From positions 544,001 to 608,000 of the forward strand of contig CAXXKJ010000002.1 of the NCBI GenBank assembly GCA_963675295.2: 64,000 nucleotides of DNA, written 5' to 3'. The stretch comes from a bacterium. Lineage in GTDB: Bacteria; Electryoneota; Electryoneia; Electryoneales; Electryoneaceae. Shown here piece after piece: positions 4,597 to 46,600 of this stretch. Every line of letters begins with the position of its first letter. The first letter of the stretch is position 1. The notes beneath the pieces are model-generated. The model saw only the letters and a list, made by a program, of their open reading frames with translations, was not told the DNA's origin and did no database searches. A program made the position numbers and the translations under genes.

Positions 4597-4846
4597 CAGC
4601 TCTGAGCCATGAGCTCTGAGCTGTGAGTAACCACAAAAAGTCAGGGACAGCTACGCTTCGCGTCACTGTCCCTGCTGGTAATTGATTTACTGTAGAACCC
4701 GACCAGCAAGCTGGTCGGGGCAAACACCGTTTTTCCGCAACCCGCAACCCGCAACCCGCAACCCGCAGCCCGCGGCCCAAGAACAACACGACCGCGTCTG
4801 ACGAGCAGACACGGGCACATACTTTCCAGAGCCCAGAGCCCAGAGC
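4597..4846. repeat. Repeat mosaic: heptamer arrays and REP-like palindromes
   Basis: GAGCTCT-type x4 (4597-4624), CAGGGACAG..CTGTCCCTG hairpin, GTAG palindrome (4692-4720), CCGCAAC x4 plus 2 variants (4735-4776), CCGCGT..ACACGGGCAC (4792-4818), CCAGAGC x3 (4826-4846). Confidence 0.75.
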
Positions 4847-4852
4847 CTGATT

Positions 4853-5923
4853 TTACTCAGCGTACAGCACTTCGATCGCGTTCGGCGGGTCGGACAGTTC
4901 GTATGAGCCGACTTTCTGGCCGTCGTCGAACACGTCCAGCCGCATCCCGTCACGGCAGGCGGCGTACAGCAGGCCGCTGGTGCTGTCGTAGGCGACATCG
5001 ACCACGCCGAGGCTAGCATTGATCGGTTGCATCGGATCGAGCGAATCGTAATCATAGCGCAGGATCAGGCCGTTCTCGTCGCCTTCATTCGACCAGCCTC
5101 CGGCCGCGAGGTAGACCACGTGATCGTCCTTGTCGACGGTGGACCGTCCCGGGCTGTACCCGATGTTGATGATCCGTTCGGTCTGGATTGGGAACAGGGT
5201 GAGCACGTAGACGGTGCCCGGAATGTCATCGTAGTTGCCGGTGCAGACGACGTGGATTTCGCCCGGGTAGGTGTAGTGTGCGAACTGGGGGTTGACGCCG
5301 ACGGTCAACGAATCGAGTAATGCGCCGTTCGGGCCGAGCTTCCAGACGCTGCCGGTGTTGAACGTGAAGTCGTTAAAGTCGTACTTGGAATGAACGACGT
5401 AAACCTGGTCAAATCCGGTCAGCAGTTCGACGGGGGCGATGTTGACTTCCCAATCGTCCACCACTTTCCACTTGTTGACGTTGACTACGGTGATCGAATT
5501 CCACTGCAGGTTCGAGATCAGCAGCAGGGAGTCGCGGAAGGCGAGGCTGGCGTAGGGACTGCGATTTTCTGACAGGCCGATGTCGAGCTCTCCGGCCGGT
5601 TCGGCGGAACGGTTGCTGATGTCGAAGCGCTGCAGCGTGTTGCTCAGGCTGTTGACGACGTACAGGCTGTCGCCGATCCGTGTCATCCAGTTCGCGCCGA
5701 GGCCGAGACCTTGCGGTTGCTGCCAGGTTTTCGTGTCGGCGTTGAACAGGGTTAACGTTTCGTCACCCGCCACGGCGATGATGGAGCCGGTTTGGGACGG
5801 GTTGTCATCACCGTTGGAGTCGGCGGGGTTGTCGTCGCAGGCGGTGAAGGCAAGCATCAACGCGATGGCGAGGATCGGCAGCATCAGCAGACGTGGCGTA
5901 CGGAACGGGTTTGTCGGGCTCAT
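4853..5923 (-). CDS. YncE-like beta-propeller lipoprotein
   Basis: Lipobox LAFTAC; propeller blades LYVVNSLSNT, LTVGVNPQ, INIGYSPG; ATG 5923 chosen. Confidence 0.75.
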   Translation of the reverse strand: MSPTNPFRTPRLLMLPILAIALMLAFTACDDNPADSNGDDNPSQTGSIIAVAGDETLTLFNADTKTWQQPQGLGLGANWMTRIGDSLYVVNSLSNTLQRFDISNRSAEPAGELDIGLSENRSPYASLAFRDSLLLISNLQWNSITVVNVNKWKVVDDWEVNIAPVELLTGFDQVYVVHSKYDFNDFTFNTGSVWKLGPNGALLDSLTVGVNPQFAHYTYPGEIHVVCTGNYDDIPGTVYVLTLFPIQTERIINIGYSPGRSTVDKDDHVVYLAAGGWSNEGDENGLILRYDYDSLDPMQPINASLGVVDVAYDSTSGLLYAACRDGMRLDVFDDGQKVGSYELSDPPNAIEVLYAE

Positions 5924-6136
5924 TGCATCATCCGGTTGTGTCGGTCTGGATCGAATGTTCGTCTCCGGGGCGACGGCTGCCGTGCCGGTTTTGCTTGCGG
6001 CGGCGTGCGGCAGCACGTAATAACTCCGTAACCATGCCGAATCCAGGAAAGCGCGGGTTTGTTGGTCGGCGAGTGTTGGTCAACGGCATCGTTCCGGACA
6101 CGGTTTGAACGTTCAGTTTCGTCGGGAAGGTACAAT

Positions 6137-7108
6137 ATGGAATTCGACTTTGCAGCCTGGTGGGGCAAGTGGGGCGCGAATCTGATTCACGTTGCTGTGA
6201 TTCTTCTGCTCGGCATCGTGGCTGGTGTGATTGTCCGCAAACTGACCGACCGGATGGTGAAGAAGGCGGAGACGCTGGAAGATCGCCGTTCCGCCCAGCG
6301 CCACAAAACGCTCTCGGTGTTTCTGAGGAGCGTGGCGAAAGTGGTCATCCTCACCCTGGTGGGTGTTCTGGTCCTCGGAGAATTCGGCGTCGAGATTGGG
6401 CCGCTGATCGCCGCGGCCGGTATAGCCGGTATCGCGATCGGTTTTGGCGCGCAGACGCTGGTGCAGGACTTTCTCGGCGGGACGTTTCTGTTGACCGAGG
6501 GGTATGCTCGAGTCGGGGACGTGCTCGAGGTCAACGGCAAGGCCGGCCTGGTCGAGGATATCAGCCTGCGGTTGTTGGTGATGCGAGATTTTGCGGGGAA
6601 TGTGCATGTCATCCCCAACGGTGAGATCCGCACGATCACCAACATGACCTATCGTTTCAGCCGGGCGTTGATCGATGTCGGCGTGGCGTACCGTGAGGAC
6701 AACGATAAGGTTGTGCGGATCATGGAAGAGGTCGGCAACGAGATCGCGGAGGAGATGAGCGACGTGATCGAATCCGGTCCGGAGATCTTCGGGATCGACT
6801 CGTTCGGCGACAGCGCAATCAACTGGCGTGTGCGTTTCCAGACCAAGCCGATCGAACAGTGGAATGTGGCGCGCGCGTATCGCAGACGGCTGAAGCGTCG
6901 GTTTGATGAAGAGGGTATCGAGATTCCGTTCCCGCATCGCACCGTCTACATGGGCGAGAATCACGATGGCACCGCGCCGTTCCTGCACACCAAGCTGTAC
7001 CGTGCGAACGGAGCAGAACCGGAAGCCCACCGTGAACTGGACGACGCCGGCGATCCGGTTAAACGCGCTGGCGATGTCGTCTCGTCCGAAGCGGGTGGGG
7101 ATGCATAA
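6137..7108 (+). CDS. mscS: Small-conductance mechanosensitive channel (MscS family)
   Basis: AGIAGIAIGFGAQTLVQDFLGG, VHVIPNGEI, GIEIPFPHR motifs. Confidence 0.92.
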   Translation: MEFDFAAWWGKWGANLIHVAVILLLGIVAGVIVRKLTDRMVKKAETLEDRRSAQRHKTLSVFLRSVAKVVILTLVGVLVLGEFGVEIGPLIAAAGIAGIAIGFGAQTLVQDFLGGTFLLTEGYARVGDVLEVNGKAGLVEDISLRLLVMRDFAGNVHVIPNGEIRTITNMTYRFSRALIDVGVAYREDNDKVVRIMEEVGNEIAEEMSDVIESGPEIFGIDSFGDSAINWRVRFQTKPIEQWNVARAYRRRLKRRFDEEGIEIPFPHRTVYMGENHDGTAPFLHTKLYRANGAEPEAHRELDDAGDPVKRAGDVVSSEAGGDA

Positions 7109-7131
7109 CGCAATACAGCGGGTACGATCTG

Positions 7132-7160
7132 AAAGCGGGCGCGTAATCAGCGCCCGCTTT
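7132..7160. terminator. Bidirectional terminator hairpin; left copy of the IS1182 target duplication
   Basis: AAAGCGGGCGC-GTAATCA-GCGCCCGCTTT; identical copy at 8775-8803. Confidence 0.85.
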
Positions 7161-8774
7161 CAGACTGCTGACAAAGTCCCCACGGGCTCTCGACCTGTGG
7201 GGATTTGTTTTGTATCTTTGTAGATGCTACCTACTTCCAAAGCTCATCAAAGCGCAGCGGAGCTTATTTACATTGACGATTTGGTCCCGGACGATCATCT
7301 TTTGCGGAAGATTGATGCGGCAATTGATTTTTCGTTTATCCGGGATCGTGTAAAGCATCTCTACAGCGCCGACAATGGCCGTCCGGCTGTTGACCCTGTC
7401 CTTCTGTTCAAGATGTTGTTCATCGGTTACCTGTACGGAATTCGGTCCGAGCGTCAGCTGGTGCGTGAGATCCAGGTCAATGTTGCCTATCGCTGGTTCC
7501 TCGGGCTGGATCTGCGTGACAAGGTGCCGGACGCGTCCACGATCAGCCAGAATCGACGACGCCGTTTCCGTGAAAGCACCATCTTCCAGGAGATCTTCGA
7601 CGAGATCGTGCTGCTGGCGATCCGTCGTGGCCTGGTCGATGGCCGGGTCTTGTTCACCGATTCGACGCACCTGAAAGCCAGCGCGAACAAGAAGAAGTTC
7701 AAGAAGCGGCAGGTGACAGTGGCGACGAAGTCGTATCTGTCCGATCTGGAAGAGGCGGTGGATGCGGATCGCCTGGCGCATGGCAAAAAGCCACTGAAGA
7801 AACGTGACAATGACGATTCATCACCGCCGGCGACAAAGGAAATCAAGGTCAGCACCACCGATCCGGACAGCGGCTTCATGGTGCGGGACGGCAAGCCGCA
7901 GGGCTTTTTCTACCTTGACCACCGTACCGTAGACAACAAGGCCGGAATCATCACCGACACGCATGTCACCCCCGGCAATGTGCATGACAGCACCCCCTAC
8001 CTTGAGCGCCTCGATGCGCAGATCTGCAAATTCCACTTCCCGGTGGAAAGGGTCGGTCACGACGCCGGCTACAATACCGCCGCCATCTGCAAGGGGCTGG
8101 AGGATCGAAAGATCGACGGCGTGATCGGCTCGGTACGTACGACACGCAAGAAGGGAATGCTGGCAAAACGACTGTTTGTGTACGATTCGCTGGGGGATGT
8201 CTACCACTGTCCCGGCGGCCAGACACTACCGTATCGCACGACGACACGTGAAGGCTACCAGGAATATGTTTCCGACCCGTCGCGCTGTGTCCTCTGTCCC
8301 CTGTTGCAGCAATGCACCGAAAGCGCCAATCACCGCAAGGTGGTCACCCGGCACGTGTGGCAGGCCAGCCGTGAAAAGATGATCGCGACCGCTCGGACAG
8401 AACGCGGACGGGCCACGTACCGGCGACGACGGGAGACGGTCGAACGCAGCTTCGGCGAAGCCAAACAACTGTATGGCCATCGCTATGCCCGGCTGCGCTC
8501 GATAGCCGGAGCACGTGAACAATGCCTGCTGTCCGCCGCCTGCCAGAACATGAAGAAGATCGCCATGACAATGGCGAAACACCCCTCTATCTCAAGACTA
8601 TGGACCTATTTAGCCGGTCTTCTATCCCAGCGCACCACGCTCAACGGTCTCGATAGAAAAATCGAGCGAAGAACCAAACACAACCTGCCAACTATACCAC
8701 AAATCCAACCAGTAGGATGTGCCGTGTGAATACAAAACAAACCCCATCAAATGACGGGGTTTGTCAGCAGTCTG
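7161..8774 (+). mobile_element. IS1182-family insertion sequence
   Basis: Perfect 15-bp terminal IRs CAGACTGCTGACAAA / TTTGTCAGCAGTCTG; 29-bp direct repeats on both flanks. Confidence 0.92.
7224..8729 (+). CDS. IS1182-family DDE transposase
   Basis: DDHLLRKID, GRPAVDPVLLFKMLFIGYLYGIRSER, DSTHLKA, STTDPDSG, RRETVERSFGEAK. Confidence 0.93.
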   Translation: MLPTSKAHQSAAELIYIDDLVPDDHLLRKIDAAIDFSFIRDRVKHLYSADNGRPAVDPVLLFKMLFIGYLYGIRSERQLVREIQVNVAYRWFLGLDLRDKVPDASTISQNRRRRFRESTIFQEIFDEIVLLAIRRGLVDGRVLFTDSTHLKASANKKKFKKRQVTVATKSYLSDLEEAVDADRLAHGKKPLKKRDNDDSSPPATKEIKVSTTDPDSGFMVRDGKPQGFFYLDHRTVDNKAGIITDTHVTPGNVHDSTPYLERLDAQICKFHFPVERVGHDAGYNTAAICKGLEDRKIDGVIGSVRTTRKKGMLAKRLFVYDSLGDVYHCPGGQTLPYRTTTREGYQEYVSDPSRCVLCPLLQQCTESANHRKVVTRHVWQASREKMIATARTERGRATYRRRRETVERSFGEAKQLYGHRYARLRSIAGAREQCLLSAACQNMKKIAMTMAKHPSISRLWTYLAGLLSQRTTLNGLDRKIERRTKHNLPTIPQIQPVGCAV

Positions 8775-8803
8775 AAAGCGGGCGCGTAATCAGCGCCCGC
8801 TTT
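8775..8803. terminator. Right copy of the duplicated terminator hairpin
   Basis: Identical to 7132-7160; abuts the stop codon of the minus-strand dehydratase. Confidence 0.85.
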
Positions 8804-8804
8804 G

Positions 8805-9821
8805 CTATTTCAGCAACGTAGCCGTATCCACATTCCCCCCACTCAGCACCAGGCCCACGCGTTTCCCGGCGAACAGCTCGCGGTGTTTCAGCAGGGCGGC
8901 GAAGACGGTCGCGCCAGAGGGTTCGACGACCAGTTTCAGGCGTGTCCAGATCAGCAGCATCGCATCACGGATCTCGTCCTCGCTGACCAGCAGGATGTCC
9001 TCGAGGTGGTGGTGGAGGATCGGGAAGGTCAGCGTGCCGAGCGCGGTGCGGAGGCCGTCCGCGATGGTCAGGGCGTTTTTGGACGGCTGCAAGGTGCCGG
9101 TGTCGAGCGATTGTTTCGCGTCGTCGGCGATTTCCGGTTCGACGCCATAGACGGGGATGGGGAAGTGGCCACAGCGGGATGTGCTCGTGTCAGAGACTTG
9201 CAGACGCGGATGATCCGTCACGGTTTCACCATGCTCCCGATGCACGGCAATCGCGACACCAGAGCACAGCCCGCCTCCACCGACGGGAACCAGCACGGCG
9301 TCCAGATCCGGCACATCCTCCATTAACTCCAGCCCGACGGTGCCTTGTCCGGCGATGACGCGGGCGTCATTGTACGGGTGCAGGAACGTCGCACCGGTGT
9401 CGGCGACGACGTCCGCGAGGGTCGTTTCGCGCGCTTCGAGTGTTGGTTCGCACTGGACGATGCGTGCGCCGTAGCCCTCGGTCGCCAGCCGTTTCGCTTC
9501 GGGCGCGGAGGTTGGCATGACAACGTGCGCGGTGATCCCGCGCCACGCCGCGGCCTGCGCCAACGCCGCAGCGAAATTGCCGGAGCTGTGGGTGGCGACT
9601 CCACGGGACGCGTCCTCATCGGACAGGGAGAAGACGCCGTTGGTCGCGCCGCGCGCTTTGAACGAGCCGGTTTTCTGCAACGGTTCAGCCTTGAAAAACA
9701 GGTTGGCGCCCACGATTTCGTCAATCCGGCGGCTGGTCAGAACGGGTGTCCGGTGGATGTACGGACGGACTCGCTCGGCGGCGGCGAGAATGTCGGTGTA
9801 GTCTACGGCGAGCTCGGGCAC
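8805..9821 (-). CDS. PLP-dependent threonine/serine dehydratase (serine racemase-like) with an in-frame repeat-derived insertion
   Basis: QKTGSFKARGA PLP lysine, HSSGN, VPVGGGGL, TIADG, VVEPSGA, LSGGNVD. Confidence 0.9.
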   Translation of the reverse strand: MPELAVDYTDILAAAERVRPYIHRTPVLTSRRIDEIVGANLFFKAEPLQKTGSFKARGATNGVFSLSDEDASRGVATHSSGNFAAALAQAAAWRGITAHVVMPTSAPEAKRLATEGYGARIVQCEPTLEARETTLADVVADTGATFLHPYNDARVIAGQGTVGLELMEDVPDLDAVLVPVGGGGLCSGVAIAVHREHGETVTDHPRLQVSDTSTSRCGHFPIPVYGVEPEIADDAKQSLDTGTLQPSKNALTIADGLRTALGTLTFPILHHHLEDILLVSEDEIRDAMLLIWTRLKLVVEPSGATVFAALLKHRELFAGKRVGLVLSGGNVDTATLLK

Positions 9822-9940
9822 GGCGAAATCTCCACGCGAAGTTCGGACAGGCTTATATTCCCGCGCAAGGTAAGGGCCGAATGGGCCTTTGGGATATGGG
9901 CAGAATTCTCATGGGTACGACCTCTCAGGGTGAGCGTATT

Positions 9941-12932: not shown

Positions 12933-12933
12933 T

Positions 12934-13688: not shown

Positions 13689-14009
13689 ATGAAGCGTCGT
13701 CACTTCAGCCGTTCGTTCAAGGTGGAGGTCTTGCAGCGGATTGAGGACAGCGGCCTCCGCTGCAATCGAGTTGCCTTGGACATGGGTTTGGATCCCAGCG
13801 TTGTTCGCCGCTGGAAGCGTCAGTTGGATCGCGAGGGATCGGATTCGTTTCCGGGCAGTGGTCATGTTCGCAGTTCGGCAGCGAAGCAGCGCCAGCTAGA
13901 GCGCGAGAATGCTCGTCTTCGTCAGGAGAACGAGATCTTAAAAAAAGCCATGGCCTTTTTCGGGAAGGAATCGAGCATCGGTACCGATTCATCCGGGAAA
14001 AGGCGCTGA
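13689..14009 (+). CDS. IS3 transposase OrfA (HTH)
   Basis: RRHFSRSFKVEV, LERENARLRQENEILKKAMAFF; A7G slippery site at 13940-13947. Confidence 0.9.
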   Translation: MKRRHFSRSFKVEVLQRIEDSGLRCNRVALDMGLDPSVVRRWKRQLDREGSDSFPGSGHVRSSAAKQRQLERENARLRQENEILKKAMAFFGKESSIGTDSSGKRR

Positions 14010-14842
14010 TTTATCCCGTGGCTGTGATGTGCCGTCTTTTGCGTGTTTCACGCAGTGGATATTACGCTTGGCGTGACCGTGCGCCCAGCGCGCGAGCCTG
14101 TCAGAATGCGGTTCTGGTGGATGTGATACGTACGATCCATCCGCAAGTCCGTTTTACGTATGGCAGCCCGCGTATGCATCGCGAGCTTGTGGCGCGTGGG
14201 TTTGCTTGTGGACGTCACCGTGTCGCGCGGCTGATGCGGGAGCACCGCATACGTGCCAAACAACGTCGCGGGTATCGTCCGCAAACCACCCGTTCCTCCG
14301 GACAGACTGCTGTGGCGCCGAATCTTCTTTCCCGTCGCTTTGACGCCGGTGTCCCCGACTGGGCCTGGGTGGCAGATATCACCTACATTGCCACGGATGA
14401 AGGGTGGTTGTATCTAGCGGCGGTGCTGGATCTGGGTACGCGGATGATCGTCGGCTGGGCAACATCCAGGCGACTGACCCGCCAGTTGACCTTGCGCAGT
14501 CTGATGATGGCACAGCAACGCCGCAGACCCGCTGCTGGCCTGATCCATCACTCCGATCAGGGCTCGCAATACGCCAGCGACCAATACCAGGCGGCCCTTG
14601 CCTCTTGCCAGATGCTGCCGTCCATGAGCCGCAAAGGCAACTGCTGGGACAACGCTATGATCGAAAGCTTCTTCTGCACGCTGAAAATCGAAGAAGTCAA
14701 CGACGCACGCTATGGCACACGTGAAGATGCCAAACGAAGCCTGTACCAGTATATTGAACGGTTCTACAACACCAAAAGAAGACACTCAAGCCTGAACTAC
14801 AAAACACCCGCTGAAGCCATGAAGGACTTCAAACGGGTGTAG
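13940..14842 (+). CDS. IS3 transposase OrfB (DDE integrase core), joined to OrfA by -1 frameshift
   Basis: -1 frame open from the AAAAAAAG site; WVADITYI, HHSDQGSQY, DNAMIESFF, FYNTKRRHSSL. Confidence 0.9.
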   Translation, partial: KKSHGLFREGIEHRYRFIREKALIYPVAVMCRLLRVSRSGYYAWRDRAPSARACQNAVLVDVIRTIHPQVRFTYGSPRMHRELVARGFACGRHRVARLMREHRIRAKQRRGYRPQTTRSSGQTAVAPNLLSRRFDAGVPDWAWVADITYIATDEGWLYLAAVLDLGTRMIVGWATSRRLTRQLTLRSLMMAQQRRRPAAGLIHHSDQGSQYASDQYQAALASCQMLPSMSRKGNCWDNAMIESFFCTLKIEEVNDARYGTREDAKRSLYQYIERFYNTKRRHSSLNYKTPAEAMKDFKRV

Positions 14843-16623: not shown

Positions 16624-17016
16624 ATGTTTTTCGGTGACATGTTCAAGCGGCAGAAGCCGCGCGGGCTGACGTGGACCCCGCGATATTTCGACGAGCGCGA
16701 GTTCGATCCGCTCGACGACGAACAATACGCCGAGATGCGGCGTCAAACCCGCATCCAGTTCCAGCAGTTGCGTACCAGTCACAGCAAACGGCGTGGGATG
16801 AACCCGTTCATCCTGCTCGCGTTTGTGTTCATGATCGGGGCGATTATCTGGGCGGCGTTGCGTCCCGAATCGCTGGAGAGTGTCCGTGACATTCAGCTGT
16901 CGCCGCAAGCGGTGGTTGAGGATGACCGTCCGGCGGCGGACGTGAAACCCCTGTACGTGGAAAGGGATACGGTGCATACGGAAGCAGCGCAGCCACAGAC
17001 CGGGGAGAGTCGATGA
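16624..17016 (+). CDS. Hypothetical single-pass membrane protein
   Basis: GAGGAG RBS, KPRGLTWTPRYF, one TM helix; ATGA overlap with mutL. Confidence 0.7.
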   Translation: MFFGDMFKRQKPRGLTWTPRYFDEREFDPLDDEQYAEMRRQTRIQFQQLRTSHSKRRGMNPFILLAFVFMIGAIIWAALRPESLESVRDIQLSPQAVVEDDRPAADVKPLYVERDTVHTEAAQPQTGESR

Positions 17017-19088
17017 CTCAGCCGGGGCTGCCGGAAACGAAGATCCCGCGTCAACCGATCCAGGTGTTGCCGGAAGGGTTGGCAAACCGTATCGCGGCCG
17101 GTGAGGTCGTGGAACGGCCGGCGTCTGTCGTCAAGGAATTGATCGAGAACGCGATTGACGCCGAAGCGCAGCACATCGTGGTCTCGGTGAAGAAGGCCGG
17201 GTTGGACGAGATCCTCGTCTCGGATGACGGCTGGGGGATGGACGAGGAGGATGTGGTGACCGCACTCCGGCGTCACGCGACCTCCAAGCTGCGCACGGCG
17301 GAGGATTTGCAGCGGATTCTGCATTTCGGTTTCCGTGGGGAAGCGTTGCCGTCGATTGCCAGCGTTTCGCGGATGGAAGTGCTGACACGCCGGGAGGATC
17401 GTGACCACGCGATCCGTTACCAGGTGGACGGCGGCAAAGCGACCGGTCCCGAACCGGCGCAACGCGAGCGTGGCACGACGATGCGTGTGCGGACGTTATT
17501 CTACAACGTTCCCGCCCGCCGCAAGTTCCTGCGCACACCAGCGACGGAATACTCTCACGTGGTCAAGGTGTTCAAGCAGTTCGCGCTGACGTACCCGGAA
17601 TATGCGTGGACGCTGGAGAAGGACGGCAAGGAAGAGTATGCGTTGACCGAAACCGATCTGCGCGGGCGGATCGGGCAATTGTTCGGCGAGTCGGCGATGG
17701 GCGATCTGCACCCGCTCGAGCATCGGGTTGGGGAAGTGTTCGCGTCCGGGGTGATCGGTGGGACGAGCCTGTTCCGGAAGTCGCGCGGGGATCAGTTCCT
17801 GTATGTGAACCGGCGTCCGATCCAGTCGGGGAGCCTGCATCACGCTGTGGTCAATGGGTTCGGCCCGTTGATTGAACGCGGGCAGTACCCGTTTTACGTG
17901 ATGAATTTGCGGCTCGATCCCGAAGAGTTTGATGTCAACGTTCACCCGGCGAAGCACGAAGTGCGGTTCCGCGACGAAGGCATGGCCTACCGTGCGGTGC
18001 TGGTCGCAGTGCGGAACGCGTTGGGGCTGAGCTTGCGCAGCGGGGACGCGCCGGTGCGTGCGCCGTTGGGGGACAGGGACGCACAGCAGCGATCCGGGGA
18101 TGGCCGTCACGAGATGGAGCTGCTGCTCGGCAAGCCGCCACGGCGGCCGGATCAGCCGGTGATGCCGTCCAGCGGCGGGAGTATCAGTGGCATTCCAGCG
18201 TCCCCGCCAGCGATTAGCGCGGGTCGTGGCGCGGCGTCGGTTCCGCCACCGCCACAGCGCCCGACGAAACAGCATGAACCGGCGGTGCCGTATGAGTTGC
18301 CACCCTCGGTGGCGGCCCCGGGGATGAATGTCGGGCAGGCCGGACACGACCAGACCGAATCCGGACATGCCCCGGACATTCATGTCCGGGATGATCAGCC
18401 CTCGGATCAGCCGCACCAGCAAGCTGGTACGGGCACACCACAGTCGGATCATGCACCGGTGGCGGGGCACGATCCGCACGCGTCCGAACCGGCGCCGTCG
18501 CCGGCGTTGGAGCAGGCGGCGCAACGGTTGAATGTGTGGCAGGTGCATCGGACATACATCCTGTCGCAGACGAAATCCGGGCTGGTGATCATCGACCAGC
18601 ATGTCGCGCACGAGCGGATCTTGTTCGAGAAGGCGTTGGCGGCGATGCGGCAACGGCCATGGTCGGGGCAACGGCTGCTGTTCCCGGTAGAGGTGAAGCT
18701 CGATCCCGCCGAATCGCAGATGATGGAAGAATTGGCGCCATCATTGGCTAAAATGGGCTTCGAGGTCGAACCGGCGGGGTCACGTCTCTGGGCGATCCAC
18801 TCCGTTCCGGCGGGGCTGAAGGTGCGCAGCGAGGAGAAGCTGCTGCGGGATATGCTCGAGGATTACCGGCAGGAATATGATGTACGTCTCGAACCGCAGG
18901 AATCGCTGGCGGCGTCCTTCGCGTGCAAGGCGGCGATCAAGGCGGGCGATCCGCTGAACCTGGACGAGATGAACGCGCTGATCGACGAGCTGTTCACGAC
19001 GGAATACCCGTTCGTCTGCCCACACGGCCGGCCGGTGGTCGTCAACCTGACGCTGAGTGAATTGCATCGGTTGTTTGGGCGGGAATGA
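17013..19088 (+). CDS. mutL: DNA mismatch repair endonuclease MutL
   Basis: IAAGEVVERPASVVKELIENAIDA, GFRGEAL, DQHVAHERILFE, CPHGRP. Confidence 0.97.
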   Translation: MTQPGLPETKIPRQPIQVLPEGLANRIAAGEVVERPASVVKELIENAIDAEAQHIVVSVKKAGLDEILVSDDGWGMDEEDVVTALRRHATSKLRTAEDLQRILHFGFRGEALPSIASVSRMEVLTRREDRDHAIRYQVDGGKATGPEPAQRERGTTMRVRTLFYNVPARRKFLRTPATEYSHVVKVFKQFALTYPEYAWTLEKDGKEEYALTETDLRGRIGQLFGESAMGDLHPLEHRVGEVFASGVIGGTSLFRKSRGDQFLYVNRRPIQSGSLHHAVVNGFGPLIERGQYPFYVMNLRLDPEEFDVNVHPAKHEVRFRDEGMAYRAVLVAVRNALGLSLRSGDAPVRAPLGDRDAQQRSGDGRHEMELLLGKPPRRPDQPVMPSSGGSISGIPASPPAISAGRGAASVPPPPQRPTKQHEPAVPYELPPSVAAPGMNVGQAGHDQTESGHAPDIHVRDDQPSDQPHQQAGTGTPQSDHAPVAGHDPHASEPAPSPALEQAAQRLNVWQVHRTYILSQTKSGLVIIDQHVAHERILFEKALAAMRQRPWSGQRLLFPVEVKLDPAESQMMEELAPSLAKMGFEVEPAGSRLWAIHSVPAGLKVRSEEKLLRDMLEDYRQEYDVRLEPQESLAASFACKAAIKAGDPLNLDEMNALIDELFTTEYPFVCPHGRPVVVNLTLSELHRLFGRE

Positions 19089-19269: not shown

Positions 19270-20748
19270 ATGCGTCCGATCCTGGCGGTTGCATTGGTTT
19301 GCTTCTGGGTGGCTGCGGTTCACGCCGGCTGGCAGGAAGTGACAATTACAGACGACTATTACGGCGCGCAATGTGTTCACGCAGCGGATTTTGATGGTGA
19401 CGGCGACGTGGATCTGCTCGGTGCGGCGCTGTATGGGGATGAAATCGACTGGTGGGAGAACACGGACTCGAACGGTCTTGCCTGGACGCTGCACACTGTG
19501 GACGCTGAAGTCAGTCATCCGACGAGTGTGTATGCGATAGATGTGGATGATGACGGCGACATGGATATTCTCGGCACCAGCTATTATGACGACACTATCA
19601 CGTGGTGGGAGAACCTTGACGGGACCGGGCTGAGCTGGGGCGAACACACGGTTGGCAGCGAGTTCAGCAATCCATGGTGTGTTCATGCTGCGGATGTAGA
19701 CGGCGACGGCGATGTGGATGTCCTCGGTGCGGCATTTTACGGTGATGCGATATCGTGGTGGGAAAATCTCGACGGCACCGGCCAGAGCTGGACGGAGCAT
19801 TCGATAGGCACCCAGTTCAATGGCGCACTGAGTGTGTATACGGCGGATGTGGATGGCGACGGTGATCTGGACGTGATCGGTGGCGCCGCTTATGAGGCTG
19901 ACATCACGTGGTGGGAAAATCTGGATGGTGTTGGGCAAAGCTGGACTGAACACTCCGTGAACGGCCTGTTCGGCAACCCATGGGATGTGTATGCGGCAGA
20001 CATGGATGGTGACGGCGATGTGGATGTCCTTGGGTGCGACACGTACGAGGGGGATATCGTCTGGTGCGAAAACCGGGATGGAGAGGGCCTGCTCTGGTCC
20101 GGTCACAATGTCAGTAACACATCCAATGATGTACACGGCATTCAGGCAGCGGATGTAGACGGCGATGGTGATATGGACGTACTCGGCGCAGCTGGTGAAC
20201 TCGGTTGGTGGGAGAATCTCGATGGAACAGGGCAGTATTGGATCGAGCACACAATTGACAGCACGTATCGTTACAAGACTGTTTATTCAACGGATGTTGA
20301 TGGCGACGGCGAAGTAGACGTTCTCGGCACGGCAGAGTTTGACAATGCAATCATACTCAATCTGCAGGAGGGACCACACGAGCAGGAACCTGTTGTCGTG
20401 CTTATATCGCCTGTTACACCGACGGTGGTTCCGCAAGGTGGCTCATTTGTGTACGATTTCCGGATGCGGGTGAACTATCAACAACCGTTCAACGGTTACC
20501 TCTGGACGATGATCGGGTTACCAAACGACCAATACTACGGACCCGTATTCAGCACTCCGATCCAATTCTCTCCGGGCATGCAGGTGTCAATACCTGGAAT
20601 TCAGCAGCGGGTGCCGGGAGTCACGCCAGTGGGATACTATGACTGGATTGTAAACGCCGGGCCGACCCCCTTCATGCCTATCGGGACGGATTCTTTCCCC
20701 GTTCGGGTGATCGCTGGTTCCGCAGCAGATAGCATTACCACGGACTGA
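19270..20748 (+). CDS. Secreted FG-GAP/VCBS repeat beta-propeller protein with shared C-terminal domain
   Basis: Signal peptide; 7 repeats of AADVDGDGDVDVLG...WWENLDG. Confidence 0.88.
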   Translation: MRPILAVALVCFWVAAVHAGWQEVTITDDYYGAQCVHAADFDGDGDVDLLGAALYGDEIDWWENTDSNGLAWTLHTVDAEVSHPTSVYAIDVDDDGDMDILGTSYYDDTITWWENLDGTGLSWGEHTVGSEFSNPWCVHAADVDGDGDVDVLGAAFYGDAISWWENLDGTGQSWTEHSIGTQFNGALSVYTADVDGDGDLDVIGGAAYEADITWWENLDGVGQSWTEHSVNGLFGNPWDVYAADMDGDGDVDVLGCDTYEGDIVWCENRDGEGLLWSGHNVSNTSNDVHGIQAADVDGDGDMDVLGAAGELGWWENLDGTGQYWIEHTIDSTYRYKTVYSTDVDGDGEVDVLGTAEFDNAIILNLQEGPHEQEPVVVLISPVTPTVVPQGGSFVYDFRMRVNYQQPFNGYLWTMIGLPNDQYYGPVFSTPIQFSPGMQVSIPGIQQRVPGVTPVGYYDWIVNAGPTPFMPIGTDSFPVRVIAGSAADSITTD

Positions 20749-20767
20749 AGTCCATGGTAATTATCTT

Positions 20768-20816
20768 GCTCACAGCTCACAGCTCACAGCTCACAGCTCA
20801 CAGCTCACAGCTCACA
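20768..20816. repeat. Perfect heptamer tandem repeat (GCTCACA)x7
   Basis: Seven exact units between two convergent stop codons. Confidence 0.95.
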
Positions 20817-20818
20817 GC

Positions 20819-28048: not shown

Positions 28049-28132
28049 TAGGGACAGACCCATATAAATGAAGCAAAGTAGTAATCGGCTGAAACCCAGT
28101 ACTGGTAACAAATTAAATGGGGTCTGTCCCTA
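28049..28132. repeat. MITE/REP-like element with terminal inverted repeats
   Basis: TAGGGACAGACCCAT ... ATGGGGTCTGTCCCTA flanking an AT-rich core. Confidence 0.6.
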
Positions 28133-28180
28133 ATAAAAATATGACCGAAACGAGCGATACGAATGGTGGAAGGCGACAGG

Positions 28181-30563: not shown

Positions 30564-30640
30564 GGACTGCGGACTGCGGGCTGCGGTCGCGGCTACAGGA
30601 TTGATTTCATCGGGGACACTTTGAGGACAAAGTGTCCCCG
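30564..30640. repeat. Heptamer array plus 13-bp-stem palindrome in the gap-pgk spacer
   Basis: GGACTGC GGACTGC GGGCTGC; CGGGGACACTTTG-AGGA-CAAAGTGTCCCCG. Confidence 0.65.
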
Positions 30641-30682
30641 GCTTTACCCTTGCGCAGGCGTTACCCTTACGTGGGCACAATC

Positions 30683-32736: not shown

Positions 32737-32767
32737 GTGCCCGTGTCAAAAAACTTGCAGACGCGGA
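32737..32767 (-). repeat. CCGCGT..ACACGGGCAC palindromic repeat copy
   Basis: Minus strand TCCGCGTCTGCAAGTTTTTTGACACGGGCAC. Confidence 0.8.
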
Positions 32768-33442: not shown

Positions 33443-33525
33443 GCCCGAGTGGTGAAATTGGTAGACACGCAGTGTTGAGGGCGCTGTGCTCAATGGGCGT
33501 GCCGGTTCGAGTCCGGCCTCGGGCA
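33443..33525 (+). tRNA. tRNA-Leu (anticodon GAG)
   Basis: Acceptor GCCCGAG/CTCGGGC, anticodon arm CAGTG-TTGAGGG-CGCTG, long variable arm, GGTTCGAGTCC T-arm; CCA not encoded. Confidence 0.95.
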
Positions 33526-33539
33526 CTTTCGATTGTGAG

Positions 33540-33670: not shown

Positions 33671-33761
33671 TCCGCGTCAGCAAGTTTTTGACACGGGCAC
33701 ACCGTGTTTCCACAGCCCTTCGCCCATCGCCTACAGCCCATAACCAACAGCCTATAGCCCA
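33671..33761. repeat. CCGCGT..ACACGGGCAC repeat copy plus degenerate heptamer array x7
   Basis: TCCGCGTCAGCAAGTTTTTGACACGGGCAC (33671-33700); CAGCCCT TCGCCCA TCGCCTA CAGCCCA TAACCAA CAGCCTA TAGCCCA (33713-33761). Confidence 0.75.
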
Positions 33762-40046: not shown

Positions 40047-42317
40047 GTGCCCTCGGTGTCACGAAAAAAGGGTTCCTCAAACTGTCTACGCCGTATCATC
40101 CTTCAGGGGATCACGGCCGGTATGATCCTGCTCCTGCAGTTTTCGGTGCTTATGATCGGCAAGAACACCGCTCCGATTCCGCTTGGTTCGGATACCATCA
40201 CGAACGACCTCCTTGCCACCGGCAGCCGAAAGGCGAGTAACCTGACGCATGGCTGGGAATTCCTGCCTGAAGGATCACGGTATTACACGTACGGCTCGTT
40301 GCCTGATTCCGGTTGGACGGCGGTTGATCTGAAAACGTTTGACGGTACGGGCTGGTCGGGTGACGGTTGGTTCCGGACGACATTGCAGATTTCGGATACA
40401 GTAACCGATTCGACGATTTCCTTCCTGTATGCTCATTATGGCGCGGTTGAGTTCTATTACGCTGGCGAATTGCTTCATGCCGACGGGGCAATTCTGCCGG
40501 ATGGAACGGCGACGGGTGAGCGGGTGTCGCGTTTTCCCTCACCGGTATTGCTGGATGTACGCCGGCAAAACCGTGATTTTGCGGTTCATGTGCATTCGTC
40601 ACACAAGCGCGAGCACATGGATTCCTACTGGTTTTCGTCCTGGTGGCGGTCGCAGCAGCCTGGTTTCATGCTGTCGTTCATCCGGACGGATCTTGGGCGT
40701 CCGTATTACATCAAGGAAATCATTGTCAACAATCTGCTGTTGATTGCAGCGACAGCATTGCTGATATTATCATTGTTATATTTCTTTATCTATTTAAATG
40801 CGATAATTTTGAAAGAATCATTATTATATAGCCTTTATGGTATATTATTGACAGCTAGTGCATTAATTTTCAATGTATTTAATCAATACACACCGTTAGA
40901 ATGGAGTTTATTTAACTATTATGGAACGTGGGGTCTATTTTCCATATCTGCGTATTTTGGATTACTGCTTCTGGGTTCATTATACAAGGTCAATTTAAAG
41001 AATGTTGTATTAATTGGCGTTATTATCAATATTGTATCGCTGGAGATCGACAGGCATATCGGGTTCAATGTCATACCGATTCCGATGGCAATTTTCAGCG
41101 TTGTGAATCTCTCCTTGATTATCTACGGACTCATCAAAAAGAAGAGTGGTGCCTGGATAGTCGCGGTTGGGTATTCAAGTCTGGCGATAATTGCCGCGCT
41201 GTGGGTGACGTTGTATGGCGAGTTGCGTGATTTCTCGATGCACATCGAGGCGCTGTGGTTGATCGGTTTCCTGCCGCCGTTCATCGCGTTTACCTATATC
41301 ATCTCCAACCGGATCGGCGAAATCTGGCAGCAGCGGCAGGAATTCCATGAACAGATCATGGAATTGCTTGAAAAATCAACCTTGCTCGAACAGCAGGCGG
41401 CCACCAACGAACACATCAACGCGGAAGTGCGTGAGTTCAACCGGGCGCTGGTGAAGCAGTTGGATATGCGCACGCAGGAGCTGATTATCGCTGAAAGGCA
41501 GGCGAGTTTCGGCCAGTTTGTCCAGGGGATTGTGCACAACCTGAAGAATCCGCTTTCCGGAATCATCGGCTATGCGGACATGAGTCGCGAATCGGTGCGG
41601 GAGCTGCGCGAAAGGCTGGAGATATCGGGTGGGCTGACCGAAGATGTTGAAGCCGGTTTCGAGGATCTGGAAGACGATGTAAACACGGTGATCGACGGCG
41701 GCAATCAGTTGCTGGAGATGCTGAACAGCTTGATGTCGAAGAGCCGTGGTGATCAGGACAGCCAGGCGGTAGTCTGCGATCTGAATGATTGTTTGCGCAA
41801 CGAGTTGGAGTTCCTGAATGCGGACCCGCGGTTGAAGAAGGTGATCAAGCTGGATATTCGTCTCGCGGCCGAACCGTTGTTTGTCAAGGCGGTTCGCGGG
41901 GAGATGACGCAGGTGATCTCCAATCTGGTGATCAACGCGCGGGATGCGTTGCACGAGATTCGTGAGCCGGAAATCGTGATCACGTCGTGGCAGGATGGTG
42001 ATTGGGTCGGATTTGATGTGCGTGACAACGGCTGCGGCATTCAGCCGAAGAATCTGAAGCGGATTTTCGATCCGTTCTACACGACGAAGCGGTTGCTCAA
42101 CGACGAGAACAAGAATGGTGGCGGCAACACACCAAGCGGCACCGGGCTTGGGATGTGGATCTGCAAGCAGATGGTTTCCTCGCATGGAGGCCGGATCGAG
42201 GTGGACAGCGAGGTAGGTGTTGGCACGACGGTGACCATCCGTCTGCCGGGCGTGATCGGTGACACGGTGGAACCGCGCGGCAATCGCAGAGAACCCGCTC
42301 AGCATCGACATGCATGA
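40047..42317 (+). CDS. Membrane sensor histidine kinase (periplasmic carbohydrate-binding-like domain, ~7 TM, HisKA, HATPase)
   Basis: VHNLKNPL H-box, NLVINARDA, DNGCGI, IFDPFYTTK, GTGLGM; start uncertain. Confidence 0.9.
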   Translation: MPSVSRKKGSSNCLRRIILQGITAGMILLLQFSVLMIGKNTAPIPLGSDTITNDLLATGSRKASNLTHGWEFLPEGSRYYTYGSLPDSGWTAVDLKTFDGTGWSGDGWFRTTLQISDTVTDSTISFLYAHYGAVEFYYAGELLHADGAILPDGTATGERVSRFPSPVLLDVRRQNRDFAVHVHSSHKREHMDSYWFSSWWRSQQPGFMLSFIRTDLGRPYYIKEIIVNNLLLIAATALLILSLLYFFIYLNAIILKESLLYSLYGILLTASALIFNVFNQYTPLEWSLFNYYGTWGLFSISAYFGLLLLGSLYKVNLKNVVLIGVIINIVSLEIDRHIGFNVIPIPMAIFSVVNLSLIIYGLIKKKSGAWIVAVGYSSLAIIAALWVTLYGELRDFSMHIEALWLIGFLPPFIAFTYIISNRIGEIWQQRQEFHEQIMELLEKSTLLEQQAATNEHINAEVREFNRALVKQLDMRTQELIIAERQASFGQFVQGIVHNLKNPLSGIIGYADMSRESVRELRERLEISGGLTEDVEAGFEDLEDDVNTVIDGGNQLLEMLNSLMSKSRGDQDSQAVVCDLNDCLRNELEFLNADPRLKKVIKLDIRLAAEPLFVKAVRGEMTQVISNLVINARDALHEIREPEIVITSWQDGDWVGFDVRDNGCGIQPKNLKRIFDPFYTTKRLLNDENKNGGGNTPSGTGLGMWICKQMVSSHGGRIEVDSEVGVGTTVTIRLPGVIGDTVEPRGNRREPAQHRHA

Positions 42318-42407
42318 ACGGCTGAACGGGTTGGTGTTGTAACTTCAGTCCTGGATCCCGGAATTCAGTATCCCAGATGTTTCAACTCTGCATAAGCGCG
42401 GGGTTGC

Positions 42408-43382
42408 CTACCACGCATAGCATTCCGGCGCGGGTCCACCGGGTCCGGGCCAGATCTCATCCAGCTTCTTAAGTGTTTCCTCGGACAGCTCGACATCGAC
42501 AGCGTGCATGTTCTCCTTGAACTGGTCAAGGGTTCGCGGGCCGACGATGGGTGCGGTGATGGCTGGATTCGCCAGCAGCCACGCCAGGGCGACGTCGGCC
42601 GGCCGTTCGCCGATCTCGTCGCACAGGGCTTCGTACTGTTCGAGCTGGGTACGGCGTTCCTCAATCTGCTTCAGCATGTTGTCGGTGGTACGGCGTCCTT
42701 CCGACATCTTTTTCAATACGCCGCCGAGTAGTCCACCGCCAAGCGGGCTCCACGGGATGATGCCGACGCCGTACGCTTCGCAGGCCGGAATCAGGTCGGA
42801 TTCGATGGCGCGGTTGCCGAGGTGGTAGAAGCTTTGTTCGCTGACGATGCCGTAGAGGTTGCGTTTGAACGCGATTTCGTTGCCCTGCACGATGTGCCAG
42901 CCGGCGAAATTGCTGGTGCCGACGTAGAGGATCTTGCCTTCCTGGATCAGCTGGTCCATCGCCTGCCAGATTTCTTCCCACGGGGTGTCGCGGTCGACGT
43001 GATGCATCTGGTAGAGGTCGATGCGGTCGGTTTGCAGGCGTTTCAGGCTGGCATCCACGGCCTGGCGGATGTTGTAGGCGGACAGCTTGCGATCGTTGAT
43101 ACCGTCCTCGGACATCTGGCCGTAGACTTTGGTCGCGAGCACGATTTCGTCCCGCTTGCCCGGATTCTGCTTGAACCAGCGGCCGATGTATTCTTCGGAG
43201 GTGCCACGTCCCTTGCTGCCGCCGTAGACGTTCGCGGTATCCCAGAAGTTGACACCGCTGTCATAAGCGGTGTCCATGATGGTGCGGCTGTCGGCCTCGG
43301 TGGTCCAATGGCCGAAGTTCATCGTGCCGAGGCAGACACGGCTGACGCGTACGCCGGACCGGCCGAGATGTGCGTATTTCAT
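42408..43382 (-). CDS. Aldo/keto reductase
   Basis: LGTMNFG, DTANVYG, SLKRLQTDRIDLYQMH, PWSPLGGG; GGAG RBS before ATG 43382. Confidence 0.94.
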   Translation of the reverse strand: MKYAHLGRSGVRVSRVCLGTMNFGHWTTEADSRTIMDTAYDSGVNFWDTANVYGGSKGRGTSEEYIGRWFKQNPGKRDEIVLATKVYGQMSEDGINDRKLSAYNIRQAVDASLKRLQTDRIDLYQMHHVDRDTPWEEIWQAMDQLIQEGKILYVGTSNFAGWHIVQGNEIAFKRNLYGIVSEQSFYHLGNRAIESDLIPACEAYGVGIIPWSPLGGGLLGGVLKKMSEGRRTTDNMLKQIEERRTQLEQYEALCDEIGERPADVALAWLLANPAITAPIVGPRTLDQFKENMHAVDVELSEETLKKLDEIWPGPGGPAPECYAW

Positions 43383-43575
43383 GATCGCTCCAGGTTGGTG
43401 GCTGGTGGTGGCTCGCAAGCTATTTGTACGGGTGGTGGCGGCGCAATCGGGAATGGATCGTGGGGTGGGCCGTGTGAGGGTCGCGAACGCTCCGTGCTCA
43501 TCTCTCCGCGTATGGGGGTAAAAGCTGCCCCTACCCTCAGTTTGTGTCTGTTCTATGCTGCTCTATCCTATGTAA

Positions 43576-43621
43576 TATCAGCGAATTACTCTCCACAAGA
43601 TGCTCTGGCGTGCTCCTTGCT
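43576..43621 (+). promoter_or_regulatory. Sigma-54 promoter with upstream IHF-like site
   Basis: TGGCGT-GCTCC-TTGCT (43606-43621); TATCAG-CGAA-TTA (43576-43588) fits WATCARN4TTR. Confidence 0.6.
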
Positions 43622-43663
43622 CCAAGGTTTGCGGACCCGTATCTCCGCGACCCAGAGGACGCC

Positions 43664-46600
43664 ATGGATTTTCCACAATTTGCGGGCCGGCCGAACCGGC
43701 CGGACGAGATCGAACGGCAATTGGACAGCCGAACTCGGGACGAGTACACCGTCACGGCGATCGTGTCGGCGTATGCGTCAACGAAGTTCCTGCCGGACCT
43801 GCTCGAGGACCTGTTCGGCCAGACGCTTTATGCGCGTGGCGAGCTGGAAATCGTGTTCGTCGACAGCCACTCGCCGGAAGACGATTGGTCGCTGATCGAA
43901 GCGGCTGCCCGTGACCACGATCATGTCCGCGCCATTCGGACGGTGGAGCGTGAGACGCTGTACACGGCGTGGAATCGTGCCATCGCCGAAGCGCGCGGAC
44001 GTTACATCAGCAACGCAAACACGGACGACCGGCACCGCGCGGATGCGTACGAGCTGTTATCCGGCGTGCTGGACCAGCGCGAGGATGTCGCACTGGTGTA
44101 TTCGAACACGTATGTCTCGCGAGTGGAGAACGAACCCTTCGCGGAGAATACCGGCACCGAACCGTTCACTACTCCCGCCTTTTTCGCCCCGAACCAGTTG
44201 CTGCATTTCCCGTTTGGCGCGCAGCCGATGTGGCGCCGGACGGTTCATGATGTGATCGGTGTCTTTGACGGCTCGTTCAAAGCGGCCGGCGACTGGGATT
44301 TCGCGATCCGGTTTGTGCGCAAGTTCCGTGCGTTGCACATCGAGGAGGTGCTCGGATCGTACCTCGTGCAGGACAACGCAATCAGCTTCCGCGATGATAC
44401 GGTCAAGCGGGAGAATGCGCTCATCCACGGCCGGATTCACAATCCGGACACGGCGTACGTGTTGTACCGGCAGGAAGGGCTGGCGCTGGACACGCCGCAG
44501 GAGAAGGCGCAGGCGCTTGTCGATCTGGGCGTGCGCGCGTTGGGGTACAAGATTCCGTATGGCACCCCGCGGACCAAATTCCCGCTGGCGTTGAACTTTT
44601 TCGCGGAAGCGACCCGTCTCGCGCCGGAGTGGGCGGTGGGCTGGAACAATCTCGCGATCGCGCTGGCGTTGACCGGACAGCAGAAGCAGGCGCAGGAACT
44701 GATCGAGGCGCTGTCGGCGAAAGCGAAGCACCCGACGGTGGAGCGGAACGCGCGGATCATCCGTGAGGCGGCGACAGGAACGCCGGGCGAGGGATTGGAG
44801 GTGCTGCCCTCGGGGTTGCCATTCCCGAGCCAGGAGGAGCTACAGACCTCGGCGGTGGGACCGGACCGCAGTGTCAGCGCAGAGCAGTTGCTACAGGGAC
44901 AGGGTGAACAGCGGCCGGCGTCAACCGGATCAGCGCAAGGACCGACGAACGGCCAGGCGGCAGTGAGTCCGGTGGATCAATTGCGTGCCGAGGGGATTCG
45001 TCTACTGCAATCCGGTCAATTCGAGCCGGGAGTGGCGAAGCTGGATGCTGCGATTGAACGGGAACCGTTCGACACGAAAACCCACGACGCATTGCGTGTG
45101 CTCAGCCTGCAGGCGCCGGAGGGGTGGCAGCGGGAACGGGACACGCGTGTCGCGCAGATGATCCGTTCGACCAAGGGCGTGGAACGGCTGAATTGGATCC
45201 ACCGCTCGGGCCAGTTCCACGAAGCCCCGCAGTCGATGGAGACAATCTGGGATCTGGTGCGCACGGAGCTGACTCCGCAGCAGCCGGATACCTCAGGCGA
45301 GCCACGGGTGACGGTCGTGCTGACGGTGCACAATCACGAACGGTACGTCGAAGAGGCGTTCCGTTCGGTGATCGCGCAGACAGTGCGTGACTGGGAGCTG
45401 GTGATCGTTGATGATAACTCGACCGACGGCACCCCGGCGCTGATTGAGCGGCTGGTTAGCGAACATCAGGACTATCGGATCACGTCGCTGCGGCTGGATG
45501 GTGCCGGACCGGCGCGCGCACGGAACACCGGCGCATCGCACGGCAGCGCGCCGTACCTGTTGCTGCTGGATGGGGACGATCTGCTCGCGGCAGACTACAT
45601 CGAACAGCTGCTGCCTGTGATGGAGAAGGACGCGAATCTCGGCTGGGCGTACCCGGTCAGTGTGCAGGCAGGCGGACACAACCGGTTGTGGAGCTGGCGG
45701 CCGTTTGATGTCGCTGAGCTGGCTGCGGCGGACCGGATGCCGGTCAACAGTTTGATGCGTCGCGAGATGTTTGAGGACATGGGCGGCTTCAGCCCGGAAC
45801 TGGTCGGCGCGTACGAGGATTGGGATCTGTGGCTGCGGGCGGTTCGGGCCGGCTGGAAGGCGCGGATGGTGCCGTCAGCGCTGTTCCTGTATCGCAAGGT
45901 GGCGGGGTCGCGTTGTGACTTCAATGGCCAGCCGGAAGCGCCGGAAGTGGACGCGAAACGCACGATGATGCGTCATGTGCCGGAATTCTACCAGCCCGGT
46001 GCGGTGGATCATCCGGTGTTGACACAGGTGTTGCGGATTCCCATCGAGCTGGCGAACCGGGAGTATTGTGACCGACTGATGAAACGTTTTACCGCCAACA
46101 CACCGCCGGACAGGCCGGACAGACGACCGGAGATGATGACGGTGGAACCGGTAACGGGTCCGCGTTTGCAAGCAAACACGGGCACGGATACGAAGTTGCC
46201 AAGTGCGGATGAGCCGCGTCCGCAAGTTTTTAACACGGGCACGAACAAGGGAGTGGAAGCTGCGGATGATCCGCGTTTGCAAGCAAACACGGGCACGTCT
46301 GCAGACGGCAAGCCGGTGCGGGTGCTGTTCTACTTCTTCAAGAACGTACACATCCCGGTGTTGTTGCCGGTGTATCGCGAGATGAAGCGGCAGGGCGGGT
46401 TCGAGATCGCGTTCGCAATGCACGGGTATGACCGTCACATTCGCGCCGGGATGGAATCGTACGAGCTGGAGCTGTTGCGTCGTGAGGGCGCACCGATTGT
46501 GCAGGACCCGAGCGAGTGGCGTGCCGACGTGACGTTGATGGCGGATAACGTCGCGTTCAACCTGTTCGGCTGCGGAGAGATTGTCAACATCGGGCACGGC

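Follow-up and report, generated by a model that had tools for sequence, protein, structure and literature searches.

In-frame palindromic repeats in proteins are not a new phenomenon. In the accessible parts of the published sources, Rickettsia palindromic elements (RPEs) are described as ~150 bp long and nearly half coding (PMC10969869), and intragenic repetitive extragenic palindromes (REPs) are listed in many species, including copies in an Opitutus terrae DNA ligase and in an open reading frame (ORF) annotated as a dehydratase, with clusters that encode 43-82 amino acids (Di Nocera et al. 2013, PMC3733652); whether intragenic palindromes bring harm, help or mere decoration is left open there. 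Where REPs have entered tnpA-REP genes in frame, the affected positions are peripheral loops, and feet other than GTAG exist (class 3, CnGA, hundreds of copies), according to the accessible text of Quentin et al. 2018 (PMC6006769). Here we analyze a short palindromic repeat, family A, found both between and within genes in a 64,000-nt stretch from an uncultured bacterium of the Electryoneaceae (assembly GCA_963675295.2, contig CAXXKJ010000002.1, positions 544,001 to 608,000; hereafter the window). The repeat was originally predicted to be RPE-like. Of that reading, a lineage-specific palindromic repeat that adds in-frame residues to conserved proteins stands; membership of the RPE class does not, because units of 24-29 nt of which ~9% are coding, mainly placed after stop codons, have the anatomy of REPs. 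We consider it likely, at roughly 75%, that family A is a REP-like extragenic palindrome family, mobile or amplifying, and that the few copies present in coding sequence are those that passed a filter acting on the protein.

When the window was searched with the pattern CCGCGTYN{9,13}ACACGRGCAC, seven matches were obtained (mean 0.00 and largest value 0 in 100 dinucleotide shuffles), at the places given in the original prediction, with ends differing by at most one base. Three of these are intergenic: a copy with a 9-bp stem (4792-4818, plus strand) that lies ~35 nt past the stop codon of the minus-strand ORF at 4853-6016 and foot first on that transcript, a 28-nt long form (32737-32766, minus strand) placed foot first ~22 nt after the tpiA stop codon and carrying a TGA in the frame that reads P-R in coding copies, and a 27-nt long form (33672-33700, plus strand) between the gene for tRNA-Leu (33443-33526) and a minus-strand response regulator. 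The other four are coding, on the same strand as their gene and in the P-R-x-Q frame, and they give the peptides first read from them. One, a 27-nt long form (9181-9209, minus strand) reading PRLQVSDTST, lies in a loop of a pyridoxal phosphate (PLP) enzyme of the serine racemase/dehydratase type (8805-9821, minus strand), and three (46160-46185, 46214-46242 and 46271-46296) form an array (46160-46296, plus strand) that corresponds to linker residues 873-921 of a 1567-aa multidomain glycosyltransferase with two GT2 domains and a CDP-glycerol glycerophosphotransferase-like domain (43544-48247, plus strand). As the three glycosyltransferase copies are a single array, the initial seven represent only two independent coding sites. 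Two further members extend the original set. A structural pattern (three matches in the window, none in 50 shuffles) is the basis for a copy with two compensatory stem changes, PHQQAGTGT, in the linker of MutL (18411-18436; mutL at 17013-19088, both plus strand), and a long variant (2245-2287, plus strand) with a similar foot and outer stem and a long inner hairpin is intergenic, with four related copies in locus L007 and one in L003. The window tally is thus five coding copies out of nine, in three genes.

A scan of GTDB genomes returned at least 96 loci. Among the matches listed, three related metagenome-assembled genomes (MAGs) account for 55: 27 in JAHLLB, 23 in CAJVXH and five in CAZKGR. 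The remaining 41 are single matches, about the estimated chance number, and were left out of the family analysis; all copy counts given below refer to the listed loci. None of these loci comes from the window's own genome, and the best is 82% identical; JAHLLB represents a sister species whose glycosyltransferase region shows 82% identity. The one species-level name among the close matches, bacterium BMS3Bbin04, is unclassified in NCBI, probably belongs to the Electryoneota and is assigned to the FCB (Fibrobacteres, Chlorobi and Bacteroidetes) group in the accessible part of one preprint (10.1101/2020.06.18.160598). Plasmid and phage sequences were searched and gave no match to the repeat. Two protein-level searches were insensitive, and neither outcome is evidence of absence: none of 58 candidate proteins shorter than 860 aa matched the linker region, and a profile built from 10 insert segments returned a single match among 1.84 billion representative proteins, a spurious ORF that covers an intergenic array resembling that of locus L027. 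A reading as CRISPR was ruled out, as the copies are dispersed and there is no spacer array. Beyond the three MAGs, a pattern match in an Oscillochloris MAG (L039, 2001-2025) is the inner part of a GTAG-footed palindrome and is probably unrelated.

Written on the strand opposite to the coding reading, the family A unit consists of a 4-nt foot (GTGC or AGGC), a 9-bp stem with a fixed T-G pair, a CTTG loop and an ATNAT tail. Among 79 distinct copies, 73 units are 24 nt long, five 28 nt and one 29 nt. The three inner pairs are complementary in 69 of the 73 short copies, across six main combinations, with a search pattern that fixed the outermost of these pairs and left the inner two right-arm bases free. 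In 26 copies hand-picked to show variants, 98.7% of cells pair and four pairs change on both sides, against 29-62% pairing in slid controls. The foot is GTGC in 33 of 38 JAHLLB copies, as it is in the window, and AGGC in 33 of 35 CAJVXH and five of six CAZKGR copies, its GC half being partly set by the search pattern; an ATNAT-like tail precedes 39 of the 79 copies.

At least four sibling hairpin families have a similar foot and an ATNAT tail and are often joined to family A through a palindromic ATNAT. Doublets of family B, D or E with family A occur at L002, L014, L015, L027, L071 and L076, and L027 holds an array of seven units. When translated, the sibling families share one register, H-A-x-D-I-H-V-x-D-x-P-R-L-Q. 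In the window, the MutL linker holds a family B hairpin reading APDIHVRDD (18371-18390, plus strand) in frame with its family A copy, while other siblings are intergenic: families B (51812-51831) and C (51853-51874), both with an NTGC foot, at 51812-51874, and a family C hairpin with the CTTG loop of family A at 4698-4719 (minus strand). A family E-like hairpin at 20739-20756 overlaps the end of an FG-GAP repeat gene. Rfam, run at its gathering score on the window and five loci, had no match for the repeat; its single match was a group II intron domain at 4001-4132 of L027, away from the repeat and near the seven-unit array.

With this anatomy, family A falls within the REP structural class, as a high-copy hairpin of 20-40 nt with compensatory changes and a 5' tetranucleotide foot that is mostly extragenic and 3' of genes. 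The ATNAT doublets and the array of L027 also have the makeup of bacterial interspersed mosaic elements (BIMEs) and REP doublets forming hairpins (REPINs), in which two palindromes are inverted and repeated as a mosaic. By contrast, a unit of 24-29 nt with asymmetric ends is not that of a miniature inverted-repeat transposable element, at 70-300 bp with terminal inverted repeats. The accessible text of PMC3733652 describes GTAG-type REPs, BIMEs and REPINs much like these repeats, as imperfect palindromes of 20-40 bp with a terminal tetranucleotide, G-T pairs and variable but complementary stem residues, found near the 3' ends of genes, in dimers and clusters and as in-frame protein copies. The foot here is, however, GTGC, ATGC or AGGC and not GTAG or CGTC (GTAG is found in none of the 79 copies and GTGG in one), and GTGC occurs 0 times in the main text of that paper, a comparison made without its consensus figure. 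These repeats further differ in having sibling hairpins with a common foot and ATNAT tail, in belonging to an uncultured FCB lineage and in that no gene for a REP-associated tyrosine transposase (RAYT) was found near the copies; relative to the REPs in the accessible text of PMC3733652, they add orthologues with and without the insert, a reversed strand orientation of the copies within genes and a measured near-neutral rate. The tetranucleotide foot plus hairpin is likewise shared with TnpA-REP subclasses 2.4 and 2.6 and class 3, but an NTGC/AGGC foot is not met in the classes described in the accessible text of PMC6006769, and the cognate enzyme here is a putative one. RPEs resemble these repeats as palindromes that lie in frame in unrelated conserved genes, encode a recurrent peptide and are absent from orthologues (accessible parts of PMC10969869, PMC3733652 and PMC3184786). 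They are set apart, going by their descriptions, by a length of ~105-150 bp, by a nearly half coding distribution and by the CGTC tag of RPE-4 and RPE-6, which, as in the CGTC REP families, is not found in the feet of the 79 copies.

The tally of coding and intergenic copies proposed with the original prediction was run in the three related MAGs, where repeat loci with 2-kb flanks cover ~176 kb. It was limited to loci of at least 1 kb, so that ten of the 55 loci, with 300-bp flanks, were left out; one of these, L090 (LigA), is outside the tally of 64 copies yet counted below as a coding case, and L096 (open for 202 aa, no Pfam match) is unclassified and also outside it. Although 75% of this DNA is coding, 58 of the 64 classifiable copies are intergenic and only six (~9%) coding. 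Genes were called with a codon score trained on the window, which missed some, and six were added before orientations were counted. The 41 intergenic gaps with copies comprise 25 between co-directional genes, eight convergent, four divergent and four of unknown type, and the preferred placement of copies is just 3' of stop codons: the copy nearest a stop codon is foot first in 26 of 36 gaps, in 24 of 28 when within 100 nt and in 16 of 25 co-directional gaps. The foot strand is also the one that folds more stably as an RNA hairpin, in 78 of the 79 copies.

Such placement, in which the transcript carries the more stable strand, suits a different account, namely that the repeats are host-selected RNA elements (3' mRNA stabilizers or structures resembling terminators). 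Recombination or gene conversion would spread them with no transposase involved, and coding copies would derive from captured intergenic DNA or from slippage. The tandem arrays, exemplified by L027 with its 65-bp period, show local duplication, the copy at the C-terminus of RarA could be a stop-codon read-through capture, and no transposase was found nearby, although the transposase search covered only ~176 kb of the three MAGs. Yet the inserts of the racemase, LigA and an FNR-like protein lie inside domains and cannot be captured ends, and HUH enzymes acting on single-stranded DNA recognize just such features as a fixed T-G pair and a conserved tetranucleotide foot that lies 5' of the hairpin and outside its stem, according to the accessible text of PMC6006769 and PMC8266576. 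We regard this account as unlikely; an RNA role and transposase mobility are not mutually exclusive.

Coding copies occur in six unrelated genes, namely those of the window racemase, glycosyltransferase and MutL, an FNR-like oxidoreductase (L003), RarA/MgsA (L028) and LigA (L061 and L090). The insert is inside a domain in the racemase, LigA and the FNR-like protein (the last inferred from a Pfam span of 141 aa on 108 positions), in the C-terminal tail of RarA and in an ordinary interdomain linker in MutL. Copies are oriented foot last in all six genes, compared with nine of 25 co-directional gaps (Fisher p=0.007). The P-R-x-Q frame is used in five of the six genes and, without the two discovery genes, in three of four (p=0.016 at 1 in 6). 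The FNR-like copy, which reads SASASRHGH, shows that this frame is favored and not exclusive. The FNR-like protein (L003, 1556-2410) also has a degenerate family B insert, HAHDLHCVD, alongside its other-frame family A insert, and the C-terminal tail of RarA (L028, 1932-3419) consists of family D followed by family A, in frame.

Of the six possible readings of the short form, P-R gives the most hydrophilic peptide, with a grand average of hydropathy (GRAVY) of -1.48, and the three reverse frames have values of +0.07 to +0.34. The common 28-nt long form has a stop codon in the P-R frame, as seen in five of the six long copies of the listed loci and in the window copy at 32737. In the two long copies that are coding, by contrast, the length is 27 nt and that frame is open. 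Stem changes freely alter the peptide, with L, P or Q at position 3.

Orthologous proteins show these loops both filled and empty. The window PLP enzyme, first labeled a dehydratase, is indeed a PLP enzyme, but its type is that of a serine racemase/hydroxyaspartate dehydratase: the top PDB matches are serine racemases, and the top NCBIfam match, BhcB, is below its cut-off. Its insert (~nt 9159-9236) lies between helix 184-193 and strand 224-229, which solved serine racemases join with ~7 residues. The span from GGGGL to EP measures 25-27 aa in 114 of 120 homologs and 49-116 aa in six, namely 49 in the window protein and 72, 72, 97, 108 and 116 in five close relatives, so that inserts at this one site range from +22 to +89 aa; the insert of ~20 aa first proposed for the window protein is thereby delimited as +22 aa. 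The filled loops of the relatives are mosaics of PRLQ...TG and DIHV motifs, while P0009 and P0010, of the same racemase clade, have an empty loop. The lysine, SSGN, GGGG and SGGN motifs are intact in the window racemase, as are the catalytic motifs in all six filled racemases. Just downstream of this gene, an IS1182-family element (7132-8803, transposase 7224-8729, 44-bp inverted ends) has its right end within 2 nt of the racemase stop codon and leaves the gene intact.

The LigA loop that immediately precedes the catalytic KxDG motif is empty in four close relatives and filled in two, with the KxDG lysine intact; P0125 (L090) has +18 aa from one copy, and P0124 has +61 aa with three family A copies and one of family B. 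The empty LigA P0128 is probably encoded by the window genome's own ligA. Four distant ligases carry unrelated inserts in the same loop, which indicates that this site is tolerant in general. A run similar to intergenic heptamer repeats is also translated inside the LigA insert. The empty-ortholog alignments cover the racemase and LigA, and in both the orthologs without the repeat lack the inserted segment, contrary to the refuting condition set with the original prediction; judged from aligned sequences, the copies are insertions wherever orthologs could be aligned. When mapped onto AlphaFold2 models, as had been suggested for the dehydratase insert, the inserts appear as low-confidence loops in otherwise confident structures, with a predicted local distance difference test (pLDDT) score below 50 at racemase residues 199-216 (model mean 91.4) and LigA residues 108-166 (mean 87.7).

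The glycosyltransferase allowed the rate of change of the repeat-derived peptide to be compared with that of its surroundings. Between the window and L073, the ratio of nonsynonymous to synonymous substitution rates (dN/dS) is 0.11 in the upstream flank (595 codons) and 0.20 in the downstream flank (637 codons), and it is 0.82 in the repeat linker (46 codons) compared with 0.23 in another linker of the same protein (41 codons); every linker indel keeps the frame. The low flank values, the high linker value and the in-frame indels together indicate that the gene is maintained, by purifying selection outside the repeat linker, and that the repeat-derived peptide drifts. That the decorated genes are decaying pseudogenes or assembly artifacts is hardly credible on these data, for even though all the sequences come from uncultured assemblies, the flanks are constrained, catalytic residues are intact in the racemases and LigA, and different assemblies carry inserts at one and the same site.

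The array of this protein lies between its GT2 and glycerophosphotransferase-like domains and, with the MutL copy in an interdomain linker, speaks for the idea that the repeats mark, as originally suggested, or mediate domain-fusion joints. Without a search aimed at split or repeat-free orthologs of the glycosyltransferase, this idea was not borne out and we consider it very improbable, as staphylococcal TagF (3L7I), from an unrelated organism, has the same GT2 plus glycerophosphotransferase order, other linkers of the window glycosyltransferase are without the repeat, and most decorated sites are not joints, three of the six genes carrying a copy inside a domain and one in a tail. The gene itself belongs to a surface-polysaccharide cluster (43544-63718) that includes a number of fused glycosyl-, sulfo- and methyltransferases of very large size.

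Could the peptide instead be a functional module, recruited from an RPE-type element specialized for gene entry? The single strand used in six of six genes and the single frame in five of six would be expected of such a module, as would the common register of the sibling families, the filling of the racemase loop in six related proteins and a 12-aa segment, PRLQVSDTSTSR, that is identical between proteins P0001 and P0004. These 12 identical residues are unremarkable at an aligned identity of ~91%, however, and the small coding fraction, the free alteration of the peptide by stem changes, the linker dN/dS, the insert lengths of 22-89 aa at one site and the absence of the LigA insert from sister taxa, apparently including the window's own genome, all make a recruited function improbable. 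The sequence data favor neutrality, combined with a filter on strand and frame, and the inserts are apparently neutral additions.

We therefore return to the REP-like family as the preferred explanation. The hairpin with its foot, the high copy number in three MAGs, the 3'-of-gene placement, the presence and absence between orthologs, the gain at particular loops within the lineage, the preservation of the frame and the local expansion of arrays are directly observed. By analogy with REP biology (accessible text of PMC6006769 and PMC8266576), a RAYT-like HUH/Y1 transposase of the host may mobilize copies in the form of single-stranded hairpins, and it would recognize the folded single strand by its foot and stem irregularity. 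The unit that spreads may often be a doublet, in which the palindromic ATNAT tail links a copy to a sibling hairpin, and arrays could then grow by tandem duplication or repeated insertion. Intergenic copies would be kept foot first after genes, perhaps as RNA hairpins, and coding copies would be filtered survivors in the reverse, polar reading, persisting only where the reading frame is kept, the site is a linker, a tail or a loop at the surface, and the peptide is read in a polar frame; such a survival filter would yield the shared P-R-x-Q...T-G peptide. The insert peptides would then be tolerated passengers and not selected functions.

Several points weigh against this explanation. No Y1/HUH transposase was found by Pfam, NCBIfam and motif scans among the window ORFs or the 247 ORFs (121 + 126) of the 55 listed loci with their 2-kb flanks, and because none was found near the copies the mobilizer is inferred only; the foot, moreover, differs from the GTAG/GTGG bound by characterized RAYTs. 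The data include no empty DNA allele from which an insertion junction could be read. The frame statistics rest on six genes only, with the MutL copy found post hoc, the linker dN/dS comes from 46 codons of one species pair, and the low pLDDT of the inserts is partly due to poor alignment depth there. Family B, finally, has a GRAVY of +0.37 in its peptide frame, although another of its frames, the most hydrophilic, reaches -1.72. Polarity is therefore not a sufficient explanation for all inserts; the register of family B may result from its junction with family A.

Other mobile or repetitive features were observed in the same DNA. An IS3-like element (HTH_Tnp_1 and rve ORFs; 13689-14842) is preceded by ~1.2 kb of AT-richer DNA in which no ORF reaches 100 aa, and at ~28050-28140 an inverted pair, TAGGGACAGACCC / GGGGTCTGTCCCTA, resembles the GGGGWSAS-type ends of TIRYT genes, with no gene between. 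At L020 (2193-2513) a small GIY-YIG gene lies beside a family A copy, a single case. Heptamer tandem repeats occur in intergenic DNA, often beside hairpins (window 4735-4778, 4826-4847, 20768-20818, 33722-33756 and others). Another palindrome (GGGGACAC...GTGTCCCC) lies between gapA and pgk in the window (~30610-30641), in L036 (~1290-1322) and in L091; in CAJVXH this gap additionally holds a family A copy, which the window lacks.

Among the open-access papers listed by literature searches, no title or abstract beginning describes this repeat or lineage, with published consensus figures not compared. The REP variant is real and apparently undescribed, with an unusually clear series of filled and empty sites. 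At single loops of NAD-dependent DNA ligase and of a PLP enzyme, nature provides the empty state, one copy and multi-family arrays, and this series makes the effect of intragenic palindromes directly testable with recombinant proteins. The non-GTAG foot predicts a Y1/HUH enzyme of new specificity. A bolder version, which we think rather unlikely, is that a whole superfamily of sibling hairpins with an NTGC/AGGC foot is moved by an undescribed HUH transposase, that the ATNAT tail locks doublets into the stop-free register H-A-x-D-I-H-V-x-D-x-P-R-L-Q-A-N-T-G, and that these elements, pre-adapted or selected for protein entry, are the main ongoing source of disordered loops in the lineage. If this were true, single loops of housekeeping enzymes would grow stepwise, gaining 20-90 residues, and comparison of sister species would reveal the steps.

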